Virus record (IMG/VR): IMGVR_UViG_3300036976_000011
Span: 26,408-90,407 of that record
Direction: 5' to 3' (one strand)
Origin: a virus
Lineage: Duplodnaviria > Caudoviricetes
DNA length: 64,000 nt
The translations under genes were made by a program, and so were the position numbers. Position 1 is the first letter of the stretch; the number at the start of each line of letters is the position of its first letter. Under the pieces are notes generated by a model, which was not told the DNA's origin, did not search any database, and was given only the letters and a program-made list of their open reading frames with translations. Positions 26,035 to 30,823 of the stretch are shown here, piece by piece.

Positions 26035-26063
26035 ATTATAGCACACTTTAACCAGTGTGTCAA
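26035..26063 (-). promoter_or_regulatory. consensus sigma70 promoter, twin of the csf1 promoter
   Basis: TTGACA-cactggttaaagtgtgc-TATAAT. Confidence 0.85.
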
Positions 26064-26506
26064 GTGTTTCGTTTGAATAGTAGCCCTTCCCGGCGGCACT
26101 TGGCCTGCACGGCCCTTGGTGTCCTGTCCAGTTTTTTAGCCATCGCGGAGCATGTCATCGTCTTGTAAAATTTGTGCAGAAACTCAACCTGGTCTTTCTG
26201 CCAATACATCGAGCCAACGCCAACGCCAAGCCTCTGCGCCCGCTGATTTACTGCTATTGCAGACCGCCCTAGTTCCTCTGCAAGTTCACTCGCTGGCAAA
26301 TGTTTATTTGCTAGCAACCTAGCGTCATCTTCGTCTGTCCATCGCTTGAGCTTACGCAGCCCAAGTTGCCTGCGCTTTTGTTTTATGGCTTCGGCAGTGC
26401 GGTTGAGTCGCTTGCCTATCTGTTCATCAGTACAATGACGCCAGTACCATTTTAGGTATCGGGTTTCAAGGGAGGTCCAGGATTTGTTCGTTTTCATGTG
26501 TAGCAC
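26060..26506 (-). CDS. protein with three tandem Myb/HTH-like repeats
   Basis: Three W(T/Q)..E/D...L......(E/A)(I/L/M)A..L.R(T/S)..AV..K/R...LG repeats. Confidence 0.7.
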   Translation of the reverse strand: MLHMKTNKSWTSLETRYLKWYWRHCTDEQIGKRLNRTAEAIKQKRRQLGLRKLKRWTDEDDARLLANKHLPASELAEELGRSAIAVNQRAQRLGVGVGSMYWQKDQVEFLHKFYKTMTCSAMAKKLDRTPRAVQAKCRREGLLFKRNT

Positions 26507-27231
26507 CGCACTTCTGGAAATTCAGCGGCAAAGCGGTTGAAACCTTCTAAATTCTCACACTTGCTTCGAGCTAGACCGCCGTAATCTGCCATCATTCTTG
26601 TGACCCTGGCAGTAGTACGTACTTGCAAGCCTTGCTCCTTGTATAGATTCAAAAGCGGCAGGTTGTGCTCTGAAATATACGCCGCCAGGTCCAGGAGCTC
26701 CCACTCCATGATTGGACAACACCGGTATTTACTATCAACATATTTAAAAATAGTTGGATGGGGCTGTCCTTTCCAGCGGCTTGACAATGTTCGTTCTCTG
26801 TCCGCGCTTTCACCTTTAGATAGCCCCCAGTACCAACCGTCCCAATATTCACGCTTTGTCATAGTTTGTAAGTCCCATTGCCCCTTATCTCTACTCTCTT
26901 GCCATGATTCAGAATTTGTAATATTAAGCGTCTGTACAATGGTTAATTCAATCGGCCATTGAGCCAAGAACGTCTCTATGACTTCCTGAAAATTGTGTAT
27001 CCACCATGATTCCTCTGAGGCAAGAAAGTACATTGGTATTTGTGGAGCAATTTGGTATATCATGTGTGCTAGGCAAACAGATTGTTTGCCAAAGGAGACT
27101 GAGACATACGCTCTTGGAGCTAGCCTGAGCATTTCCTCAATACCAGACAGAGCAAAATCTAATCTGTATCGCCTCTGCCGCAATCGAGCATAAAGCCTTG
27201 CTTCAGCCATTTGCCTTTCAAATATCTTCAT
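26494..27231 (-). CDS. cysH: CysH-like (PAPS reductase / PP-loop family) protein of type IV-B system
   Basis: PP-loop variant VSVSFGKQS, WGLSKGES..R, RCCPIMEW..LD..AYISEHNLP; no C-terminal ECG redox motif. Confidence 0.85.
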   Translation of the reverse strand: MKIFERQMAEARLYARLRQRRYRLDFALSGIEEMLRLAPRAYVSVSFGKQSVCLAHMIYQIAPQIPMYFLASEESWWIHNFQEVIETFLAQWPIELTIVQTLNITNSESWQESRDKGQWDLQTMTKREYWDGWYWGLSKGESADRERTLSSRWKGQPHPTIFKYVDSKYRCCPIMEWELLDLAAYISEHNLPLLNLYKEQGLQVRTTARVTRMMADYGGLARSKCENLEGFNRFAAEFPEVRCYT

Positions 27232-27634
27232 TGCGTCGCCACTCCCACAAAGCTATTGCCAAAGCTGCCTCTACCGTTAGCCCAGAAACACAGCCGATCA
27301 TAGGTATTTGCACTTTCTGCGCAGCGCGTAGCGACCTTGGCAATCCATTTGATTCACCACCAAGCACTATCGTCGTCACCTCGGACCAATCCGTTGATTC
27401 TATTGAGTGCTCGTAATAGGTTTCAAGAGCCAATAGGCCATACGGCAACGGCCAATCAGATAGCGTCTCCAGATCAACTCTATCCTTTGCCTTGAAAAGA
27501 TTTCCGGCCAAGAGGGCGCTTCCGCAGTCCAATAACAAAAGCCGAGACACACCAAATGCTTCTGCGGTACGGTAGGCTCTATTCAGGTTCCGATTTACTT
27601 GATAAAGTAGAACGTCCACCAAATACCTCGTCAT
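27218..27634 (-). CDS. SPOUT (TrmH/TrmL-like) RNA methyltransferase
   Basis: Motif 1 NLNRAYRTAEAFG, motif 2 IVLGGESNGLP, motif 3 VQIPMIG.VSGLTVEAALAIALWE. Confidence 0.85.
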   Translation of the reverse strand: MTRYLVDVLLYQVNRNLNRAYRTAEAFGVSRLLLLDCGSALLAGNLFKAKDRVDLETLSDWPLPYGLLALETYYEHSIESTDWSEVTTIVLGGESNGLPRSLRAAQKVQIPMIGCVSGLTVEAALAIALWEWRRNEDI

Positions 27635-28118
27635 TCATAGCACGCCACGGGTGCTTCTTTCCCCTTGGCCTTTGCGCCATTTCTTTGGCCCATCTGCGTC
27701 GCTGTTCCCACCATTTTGGCGAGCGATTATAAATCACGCCGCGCAAGTTATCAGGCGTGTATCTATACACAGTAAACTCAGATACACCAAGCTTGCTGGC
27801 AACTTCACAGCACCGCTTCCTTTGAACCAAGCGCATGTCAATAATTGCCTCGGTTGCATTCTGATAACCCAGCATCATCGCTTTCCTATCGGTCTCAGTT
27901 ACGCTACTTCTGTTATCGTGCTTGTGAGCACTTTTGTCTATAGGCAATCCAAATAACTTTCTCCAATTGAAAAGCGCCCGTGTAGACACACCAAGCACGC
28001 CTGCTATCGTGCCCCACGAGCACCCCTGCTCGCGCATTCCGGCGATTACATCTTTGACCGGTTCTTCAAATTCACTCTCTATTCTATTCCACAATTTTTG
28101 TCTCGTGGCAATGCTCAT
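27579..28118 (-). CDS. tandem HTH DNA-binding protein
   Basis: SWGTIAGVLGVSTRALFNWRK and CCEVASKLGVSEFTVYRY. Confidence 0.7.
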   Translation of the reverse strand: MSIATRQKLWNRIESEFEEPVKDVIAGMREQGCSWGTIAGVLGVSTRALFNWRKLFGLPIDKSAHKHDNRSSVTETDRKAMMLGYQNATEAIIDMRLVQRKRCCEVASKLGVSEFTVYRYTPDNLRGVIYNRSPKWWEQRRRWAKEMAQRPRGKKHPWRAMNDEVFGGRSTLSSKSEPE

Positions 28119-29777: not shown

Positions 29778-30178
29778 TATGCCTCCTCAAATAGCGGAGC
29801 GTCTAGCGCCGCCTCTAGCTCATCTTGTTCTTTCCGACGTGCCTTGTACTCATCTTGTGCGTCCTGATTGCGTACGCGCACCATGAGCACGAGCAATATC
29901 GTTTCGTCCCTCATCAATTTCAAAATTGATCTATCCCGCCCCGAGTTTAATATCTTATTGGCTTCTACCTTCTCTGCTTTTGTCTTGCCGACGTTGGCAT
30001 TAAGATTCAAACAAAGAGAGCTGACGAACGTCCCCAGGCTGCTCGTGTACGCTGCACTCCTCACCTGGTCCTCGAACTGTTGCCATATCGTCGTTCGGTA
30101 ACGGCTCTTGTAATCTGGTGGTACGCCGCGCCAAATTATCCACAGAAACTCTGCCGCCTCTTGATGCTCTGGTGTCAT
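29777..30178 (-). CDS. cas11: Cas11-like small subunit, type IV-B
   Basis: All-helical 133 aa between csf1 and csf2; W..FEDQVRSAAY...L..F...LC pattern; start MTPEH at 30178. Confidence 0.75.
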   Translation of the reverse strand: MTPEHQEAAEFLWIIWRGVPPDYKSRYRTTIWQQFEDQVRSAAYTSSLGTFVSSLCLNLNANVGKTKAEKVEANKILNSGRDRSILKLMRDETILLVLMVRVRNQDAQDEYKARRKEQDELEAALDAPLFEEA

Positions 30179-30788
30179 CTTTGCTCCTTTGCGCCAGGAA
30201 TAGCGCCAATTGAAAGAGCAAGCCACCGCGCTTGCTCTTGATCCCACTCTCCAAAGTCCACCACTGTTCCACGCCAAACTGGCGAACTCTGTGCTGTACG
30301 TAATCACCTGTCTCGATTTCCTCTTTAGAAAATTGGGCGTGGAGGGATTCAACTAATGTCAGAAGCTCTTTTAATTCCATTGGCTGGACAAAAAGAGATT
30401 GCTCCTCAAACTGCACCCACCCACACGTTGCACCTAGCGGGTTCCGCCGCGCCCTAAAGACAATATGTTTTTGACCACTTTCTGCTATCGTGGCTAGCTC
30501 TGGAAAAGGCACACCCAAGAGGATGCTTTGCATGTGTTGCTTATCAGCCTTACTAAGTGGTATCCACATACCGCTGACAACAAAGTGAGAGTAGTTGCGC
30601 ATGCGCTGGGGCTTGTCTTTACCAACCAACGCAGCAAGCTCTGCGGAGCGTTCGTCAAACCAAAACAAACAACTGTCACATACACCATCACCATCAAGCA
30701 GTTTGTCATGGTCAACAAATGTGGGCTTGACCCACCTGTTGAAATCAGTCATGTCATCTGATTCATTACCGCAAAATCTACACAGCAT
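30000..30788 (-). CDS. csf1: Csf1 (Cas8-like large subunit), type IV
   Basis: CRFCG, TF.DHD, VCDSC, ESGQKHIV, QFSKEEI.TG.Y; last about 59 codons overlap cas11. Confidence 0.9.
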   Translation of the reverse strand: MLCRFCGNESDDMTDFNRWVKPTFVDHDKLLDGDGVCDSCLFWFDERSAELAALVGKDKPQRMRNYSHFVVSGMWIPLSKADKQHMQSILLGVPFPELATIAESGQKHIVFRARRNPLGATCGWVQFEEQSLFVQPMELKELLTLVESLHAQFSKEEIETGDYVQHRVRQFGVEQWWTLESGIKSKRGGLLFQLALFLAQRSKDDTRASRGGRVSVDNLARRTTRLQEPLPNDDMATVRGPGEECSVHEQPGDVRQLSLFES

Positions 30789-30794
30789 GTTCTA

Positions 30795-30823
30795 ATTATA
30801 GCACGCCTTAACCAATGTGTCAA
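30795..30823 (-). promoter_or_regulatory. consensus sigma70 promoter driving csf operon
   Basis: TTGACA-cattggttaaggcgtgc-TATAAT, 7 nt upstream of csf1 ATG. Confidence 0.85.

Follow-up and report, generated by a model that had tools for sequence, protein, structure and literature searches.

This study concerns a 64,000-nucleotide stretch of phage DNA (hereafter the window), which was taken from an IMG/VR virus record (its bases 26408-90407). The record spans 90,407 bp, carries direct terminal repeats (DTR) and is estimated to be 100% complete. On the minus strand of the window, between positions 30788 and 26060, lie eight genes whose ends overlap or abut. By sequence, they represent a phage-borne, array-less type IV-B CRISPR-Cas effector (csf1-cas11-csf2-csf3) followed by genes that include one for a CysH-like PP-loop protein and one for a putative methyltransferase of the SPOUT class. 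We lean towards the view that these two proteins form a dedicated RNA-modifying accessory cassette of the IV-B effector.

The SPOUT gene (27218..27634, minus strand) encodes 138 aa and matches PF00588 (SpoU_methylase) at 2.2e-11. An AlphaFold2 model based on 32 homologues reached a predicted local distance difference test (pLDDT) score of 90. Foldseek returned 118 PDB matches to this model at E<=1e-3, and every listed top match was of the SpoU class, with TM-scores relative to the query (TMq) of 0.81-0.84. The best matches were 2'-O-ribose methyltransferases, namely RlmB (1gz0), TrmL (5co4) and TrmH (1v2x). In a profile alignment all three SpoU motifs aligned to TrmH (7edc, 1zjr, 1v2x), including the Asn/Arg of motif 1 and the Glu of motif 2, while motif 3 has the family-specific form LTVE in place of the LNVS of TrmH. 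With about 130 aa the protein comprises the catalytic core only; it is shorter than TrmL and without RNA-binding extensions at either terminus, a reduction that speaks for a partner as the source of specificity. Sequence and model together mark the protein as a predicted minimal RNA 2'-O-methyltransferase of the SpoU/TrmH class, acting as a dedicated accessory of IV-B/CysH loci. Of the RNA or DNA targets that a first-pass annotation of the window had proposed, the accessory enzymes point to RNA as the substrate.

We wondered how far this protein is tied to its neighbours. A HMMER search over 1.84 billion cluster representatives recovered 72 representatives of the family at E<1e-10 and 34 at E<1e-30, and canonical SpoU proteins started at E>1e-9. 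By these sequence scores the family is small, distinct and sharply bounded. Its genomic contexts were sampled by exact-protein look-ups and pattern scans of viral and metagenome contigs, and loci were annotated by iterative hidden Markov model (HMM) searches seeded with the proteins of the window; relatives' loci or contigs are labelled L### and proteins P####. The scan of IMG/VR found two records besides that of the window. Among 27 non-redundant loci, all 23 contigs of sufficient length carried a CysH-like gene beside the SPOUT gene or at most two genes away; of the other four, three (<=1.7 kb) had csf3 adjoining and one held nothing else. Csf genes were present in 19 of the 27 loci. Gene orders varied, including csf3-x-SPOUT-cysH, csf3-HTH-cysH-SPOUT (HTH, helix-turn-helix) and csf2-cysH-[phosphatase]-SPOUT-csf3, and the linkage of SPOUT and cysH held despite these changes, down to about 45% SPOUT identity. 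The family thus occurs only beside CysH-like genes and nearly always within IV-B operons on phage contigs. This census supports a dedicated accessory role of the SPOUT protein and speaks against a mere passenger.

The CysH-like gene (26494..27231, minus strand) encodes an adenine nucleotide alpha-hydrolase with a PAPS_reduct domain (PF01507, 1.3e-9). Its PP-loop, SVSFGKQS, aligns to SSSFGIQA of E. coli CysH (2o8v), and residues S46, G48, K49 and S51 are invariant in an alignment of 18 CysH-like sequences (A4). The predicted fold resembles those of PAPS (3'-phosphoadenosine 5'-phosphosulfate) reductase, FMN (flavin mononucleotide) adenylyltransferase and tRNA thiolases (TtuA). No invariant C-terminal catalytic Cys of the ECGLH type was found in the 18 sequences of A4, which is true of both the SPOUT-linked and the common IV-B type of CysH. 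Because this Cys is not conserved, the window protein is CysH-like rather than a true PAPS reductase. CasCysH proteins are likewise reported to be without the catalytic cysteine needed in sulfur chemistry (PMC8175902).

Comparison of loci with and without a SPOUT gene revealed that two kinds of CysH are found next to similar effectors. In about 25 SPOUT-less loci Csf2 was 61-70% identical to that of the window and CysH merely 23-31%. The CysH proteins of SPOUT-positive loci were 54-74% identical to that of the window, as illustrated by the paired Csf2/CysH identities of L016 (72/67%), L008 (60/61%), L006 (58/74%) and L059 (49/54%). The PP-loop differs as well, reading SxSFGKQ/DS in SPOUT-linked proteins and SGGKDS in the common IV-B type. 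On a quick maximum-likelihood tree of CysH, the distribution of SPOUT required 5 changes compared with a mean of 16.4 after shuffling, and none of 500 shuffles was as low. Judged by these comparisons, SPOUT presence tracks a distinct CysH subtype and not Csf2 similarity.

A further recurrent partner of the SPOUT family is a phosphoesterase. Domains of the dual-specificity/protein tyrosine phosphatase (DSP/PTP) type are fused N- or C-terminally to SPOUT in relatives, and in one case (P0122) the fused domain is of the HAD type. A PTP gene adjoins SPOUT in L009 and L017, and L010 carries a calcineurin-like metallophosphoesterase between cysH and SPOUT. Phosphoesterases of three unrelated folds thus recur as fusion partners or neighbours of the family, and such independent fusions argue that the substrate of the methyltransferase bears a phosphate that needs removal. 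In the best-known precedent, Pnkp/Hen1 repair, RNA ends pass through three steps: clearing of the 2',3'-cyclic phosphate by a metallophosphoesterase, Hen1 methylation at the terminal 2'-OH and sealing by a ligase. The repaired RNA then withstands the same ribotoxin (PMC4411300, PMC3675462).

The effector part of the operon was well defined by profile matches. Csf1, the type IV large subunit (30000..30788, minus strand as for all genes of the operon), matched PADLOC Csf1_0_IV at 1.3e-22 and has an N-terminal CxxC...CxxC zinc ribbon. The small subunit Cas11 (open reading frame (ORF) 29777..30352) matched Cas11_1_IV at 1.6e-28 over residues 64-179; the listed ORF probably starts too early, and Met59, near 30178, is the likely start. 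Csf2, the Cas7 backbone subunit (28806..29777), matched Csf2_0_IV at 2e-81 and TIGR03115 at 3.9e-20, and the Cas5-like subunit Csf3 (28115..28855) matched Csf3_0_IV at 1.5e-43 and TIGR03116 at 1.2e-11, both NCBIfam matches being significant, yet under the curated cut-offs. Between csf3 and the SPOUT gene lies a gene for a protein with two HTH units (27579..28118; HTH_23 (PF13384), 3e-7; PF01527, 2e-5), homologues of which occur within the operons of L013, L016, L031 and L033. The last gene (26060..26506) encodes an HTH protein with three Myb/SANT-like repeats (phrog_323, 1.7e-28; Sigma70_r4, 7e-6), and a Myb-like gene likewise follows cysH in L105. The HMM search thus matched all of the Csf1, Csf2, Csf3, Cas11, PAPS_reduct and SpoU models, and the gene order csf1-cas11-csf2-csf3-HTH-SPOUT-cysH-like-Myb/HTH that had been read from the letters alone was recovered in full, with a profile match for each gene at the expected place. 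Cas6, Cas6e and Cas1 (PF10040, PF08798, PF01867) had zero matches across the whole 90,407-bp genome, and none of the eight operon genes matched a helicase or nuclease family in the family and PADLOC searches. The closest repeats, two 30-nt copies at 14905-14996, are 11 kb distant and are the sole repeats. The claim that the operon lacks cas6, cas1, a nuclease and an adjacent array was thereby confirmed, genome-wide for Cas6, Cas6e and Cas1.

How might such an operon work? We envisage the accessory module as a two-enzyme RNA-modification cassette composed of a CysH-like PP-loop ATP pyrophosphatase and a minimal SpoU/TrmH-class 2'-O-methyltransferase. IV-B Csf complexes are reported to bind RNA of 55-60 nt (PMC7937560). 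The Csf ribonucleoprotein would hold or select an RNA and so supply the binding that the minimal SPOUT protein lacks, and SPOUT would methylate a ribose 2'-OH on this RNA or on its pairing partner. Candidates for the RNA acted upon are phage tRNAs, host tRNA or rRNA, and a guide; assembly of the complex on the neighbouring RNAs and a shielding of tRNA from anticodon nucleases, as the first-pass annotation proposed, would be conjectural. The CysH-like enzyme may adenylate some group with ATP. In the relatives, the phosphoesterase would first strip a 2',3'-cyclic or 3'-phosphate, with methylation following as in Pnkp/Hen1. The likely outcome would be resistance of an RNA to nucleases that work by 2'-OH transesterification, or else stabilisation of a guide RNA. 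More speculatively, IV-B Csf complexes, or at any rate the SPOUT/CysH sub-variant, could be an RNA-scaffolded or RNA-guided machine for RNA modification and repair, an extension that we put forward only tentatively. The Cas7 filament would then present RNA to the 2'-O-methyltransferase, to the adenylating PP-loop enzyme and, in relatives, to an end-healing phosphatase, making the machine a viral counterpart of box C/D small nucleolar ribonucleoproteins (snoRNPs) or of Pnkp-Hen1 that shields phage or host RNAs from host ribonuclease defences.

Members of the clade vary in ways that touch on these questions. Locus L027 (3780-7952, on a phage contig) consists of an SNF2 helicase gene, a gene for 292 aa, a PAPS_reduct+DUF3440 gene, SPOUT and a gene for 187 aa; the 187-aa family has further members within IV-B operons, in L078, L080 and L085-L087. 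In L003 (9585-11126; identical to L041), whose Csf2 is 67% identical to that of the window, a gene for a 513-aa radical S-adenosylmethionine (radical-SAM) protein follows straight after csf3 and there is no CysH-like gene; here the accessory enzyme is replaced, with radical-SAM in place of CysH. A Cas6 gene (PF10040) is inserted in seven related phage or metagenome-assembled genome (MAG) IV-B operons (L049, L065, L069, L070, L075, L076, L098), and in L029 a CRISPR array with 37-nt repeats (999-1304) lies immediately after SPOUT-cysH. From the Cas6 loci and this array, some members of the clade probably use CRISPR RNAs (crRNAs). In two loci of the csf2-cysH-SPOUT-csf3 variant, L007 (5810-7252) and L015 (2838-4235), Csf2 is enlarged close to its N-terminus by an inserted stretch of about 170 aa. 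A separate cas11 was not detected in these two loci, and the insertion may be a fused small subunit.

Several observations weigh against the proposed cassette. The Thr of motif 3, where TrmH has Asn, means that activity of the SPOUT protein is not guaranteed by its sequence. L027 has no Csf genes within about 6-7 kb on either side of its PAPS_reduct+DUF3440/SPOUT pair, and L021 is probably a second Csf-less locus of this kind, so that the constant partner of SPOUT is the PP-loop enzyme and not Csf. A test of co-divergence across 10 SPOUT-positive loci gave a Spearman coefficient of 0.27 for SPOUT versus CysH, compared with 0.32 for Csf2 and 0.39 for Csf3, and thus adds no support for pairwise co-evolution of SPOUT and CysH. 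No PTP/DSP or other phosphoesterase of the linked types was found in the window phage; the end-healing step is therefore not applicable to this phage as such, and methylation alone can be inferred for it. A physical link of SPOUT or CysH to the Csf complex would be a presumption. The SPOUT gene is also infrequent. An initial wide alignment of Csf2 (A2) was too divergent to serve locus scans. The Csf2-based scan covered 65 viral and 8 MAG loci, and SPOUT was present in one of the 65 Csf2-related viral loci (on the same contig as L009) and in none of the 8 MAG loci. The first-pass annotation had named the absence of SPOUT genes and RNA clusters from related IV-B loci as part of the grounds for giving up its proposal. 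SPOUT is indeed missing from about 97% of Csf2-related phage loci and is therefore not a general IV-B feature; it is a marker of a rare sub-variant that has a CysH subtype of its own.

The Csf-less loci lend themselves to a different explanation, in which the CysH-like and SPOUT proteins constitute an autonomous two-enzyme module for modification of RNA, for example tRNA or rRNA, that travels with IV-B and works independently of Csf. L027 and the similar L021, with no Csf within the distance given above, fit this idea, as does the exchange of the cassette between near-identical effector backbones. Against it, cysH-SPOUT is interleaved between csf2 and csf3 in at least seven loci (L007, L009, L015, L018, L019, L103 and the P0046 locus), 19 of the 27 loci contain Csf genes, and a 130-aa SPOUT protein devoid of an RNA-recognition extension argues for a partner that confers specificity. 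We therefore regard full independence from Csf as unlikely. The opposite extreme, that SPOUT is a moron inserted by chance and functionally unrelated to the operon, would account for its absence from the nearest Csf2 relatives such as L002 (70% Csf2 identity). The context census effectively refutes it, since a CysH-like gene or csf3 adjoins SPOUT in 26 of 27 contexts, in shuffled order and at identities down to about 45%, and the family was not found elsewhere; we give it next to no weight.

If the effector is involved, the modified RNA could be the guide rather than the target. SPOUT would then mature Csf-bound RNA by a HEN1-like methylation of the 3'-terminal 2'-OH after phosphate removal, thereby stabilising the guide. 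The coupling to phosphoesterases of three unrelated folds would fit the clearing of a 2',3'-cyclic phosphate left by an RNase or Cas6, and the clade does include the seven Cas6-bearing operons and the array in L029. The window phage, however, has neither Cas6 nor a linked phosphoesterase, and characterised SpoU-class enzymes act on internal nucleotides of folded RNA, as general knowledge and the PDB neighbours indicate. We consider guide maturation doubtful. Modification of DNA is a further option, and a DndC-like role for CysH was proposed in the literature (PMC7038947, PMC8175902); the operon would then serve epigenetic marking or anti-restriction, with the role of SPOUT being unrelated or regulatory. 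The long CysH protein of L027 weakly matches DndC and SspD models and is encoded beside an SNF2 helicase. SPOUT enzymes, in contrast, require a ribose 2'-OH or an RNA base, the window CysH-like protein matched no PADLOC family at E<=0.1, and the sulfur-chemistry cysteine is missing both from CasCysH as reported (PMC8175902) and, as an invariant C-terminal residue, from A4. A DNA substrate thus appears highly improbable. An IV-B effector with a dedicated cassette for RNA modification remains the reading that we favour, if by no wide certainty.

The operon has a promoter of its own, as had been suggested, with a perfect 12/12 match to an extended sigma-70 site (30823-30795, minus strand; TTGACA-17-TATAAT plus TG extension). 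Its -10 box ends 6 nt ahead of the csf1 ATG, so the csf1 mRNA may be leaderless. A twin promoter (26035..26063, minus strand), located immediately behind the last gene, shares 25 of its 29 positions with the csf1 promoter and starts the next unit, which comprises a leader, small ORFs, an RNA ligase gene and tRNAs. The shared consensus is TTGACACAyTGGTTAArGyGTGCTATAAT. Perfect extended sigma-70 sites occur only twice in the 64 kb (0.02 expected by chance), and both bracket the IV-B operon. The phage genome is present in full in one wetland metagenome, and parts of it at 100% identity in a wetland metatranscriptome, whose contigs cover the ORF-poor segments 24512-25062 and 21829-22054 and portions of the RNA ligase gene, cysH, csf1 and cas11; other stretches of the operon lacked such cover, to which we attach no meaning. 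The contig over 24512-25062 is the deepest and terminates in a sequencing adapter at 25062. MAG matches to Csf2 were mostly from Chloroflexota/Anaerolineae, a relationship which suggests this group as the host of the phage. A blastn search of GenBank phages with the operon gave no match.

The unit behind the twin promoter was also of interest, as the first-pass annotation had described it as rich in structured RNAs, tRNAs and an RNA ligase. An RNA ligase gene (23047..24390, minus strand; PF09414, 3e-9, plus a PHA02142 OB domain), for which we do not claim membership in the IV-B system, and three tRNAs were found, tRNA-Phe(GAA), tRNA-Leu(TAG) and tRNA-Tyr(GTA) (22065..22902, minus strand; ARAGORN, with Rfam RF00005 for Phe and Leu). 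The presence of many structured RNAs received little support and would concern sequence outside the operon's own coordinates: at a relaxed threshold Rfam found tRNAs alone in 21.4-26.1 kb, and a strong ribosome-binding site marks at least one gene for a small protein in the unit. Comparison of ORF-poor stretches of the window with an ORF-free region of the SPOUT-positive phage L007 gave two short matches with 81-84% identity. One is a non-coding element of about 115 nt (22708-22824, minus strand; L007 1138-1255; 84-85% identical) and the other, of 64 nt, lies at 24550-24611. The longer element is located directly 3' of differing tRNAs, Phe in the window and Met in L007. Its folding z-score of -0.44 was no better than that of shuffled sequence, and no exact-pattern match was found in viral contigs.

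Adjacency of the SPOUT operon and the RNA cluster, which the annotation had singled out, is not conserved. In the closest SPOUT-positive relative, L006 (80% SPOUT identity), this place is taken by holin and tail genes. In L010/L012, a ligase of the Rnl1 type and four tRNAs lie some 3 kb upstream, and L009 has a Ro60/TROVE gene in its neighbourhood. An RNA ligase was present in 2 of 3 SPOUT-positive and 0 of 8 SPOUT-less IV-B phage records of IMG/VR, which is suggestive of an enrichment in SPOUT-positive phages, albeit from tiny numbers and partly incomplete records.

The distant mini-array had been considered as a source of crRNA for Csf. It consists of two identical 30-nt repeats and a 32-nt spacer (14905-14996) in a type I-E layout. 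It lies about 170 nt 3' of, and on the same strand as, a 509-aa TnpB/Cas12f-like ORF (15164-16693, minus strand; PF07282 (TNB), 2.7e-8), and for this reason it more probably belongs to that gene. A role as Csf guide was judged less likely on account of this position, and the original suggestion is weakened. A TnpB/Cas12-like gene with its own mini-array could thus exist in a phage that also has IV-B. A 339-aa DUF5131 protein (13796-14815; 2.3e-81) adjoins the mini-array, and L003 also has DUF5131 near its IV-B operon.

We compared the locus with known systems. Known type IV-B systems, for example the complex from the megaplasmid of Mycobacterium sp. JS623 (PMC7937560), share with the window locus the set and order of the four effector genes, the CysH-like gene and the location on a mobile element. 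In both, an array, Cas6, a helicase, a nuclease and adaptation genes are absent. Here, in contrast, the carrier is a virulent-looking 90-kb DTR phage and not a plasmid, a dedicated SPOUT gene and two HTH genes are added, and the CysH is of the divergent subtype (SxSFGKQ/DS versus SGGKDS). The SPOUT protein shares its predicted fold (TMq 0.81-0.84) and the three SpoU motifs with TrmH, TrmL and RlmB (1v2x, 7edc, 5co4, 1gz0) and differs from them in being shorter, in the missing RNA-binding extensions, in LTVE for LNVS and in forming a separate family beside CysH-like genes. Relatives of the window locus likewise combine a phosphoesterase, a 2'-O-methyltransferase and sometimes an RNA ligase, as do the Pnkp-Hen1 and Pnkp1-Rnl-Hen1 systems (PMC4411300, PMC3675462). 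The relation would be one of analogy only: the SPOUT knot is not homologous to the Rossmann-fold Hen1, a Csf ribonucleoprotein and a PP-loop enzyme are added, and in the window phage there is no linked phosphatase, no kinase was identified and the ligase sits in a separate transcription unit. The IV-B systems of Fuxivirus, from Bathyarchaeia viruses, are virus-encoded as in the window and have a CysH-like gene beside csf3; they differ in belonging to archaeal viruses, in a mini-array inside the locus and in that no SPOUT gene was reported (PMC10541130). In the type IV CRISPR literature that we searched, no methyltransferase or SPOUT protein is mentioned together with IV-B.

Among the widespread CRISPR-Cas subtypes, IV-B alone has, to our knowledge, no known function. 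Reviews name the CysH-like gene as key to this problem (PMC7038947, PMC8175902). The SPOUT family provides a second, readily assayable enzyme that is tied exclusively to the CysH-like gene, has a predictable chemistry (RNA 2'-O-methylation) and has recurrent phosphoesterase partners. This link narrows the substrate to RNA and opens the question to direct experiments. The restriction of the family to CysH-like neighbours suggests that IV-B complexes chemically modify RNA. Should the specificity indeed come from the complex, this would be the first system derived from CRISPR to guide the modification of RNA instead of cleavage or binding.

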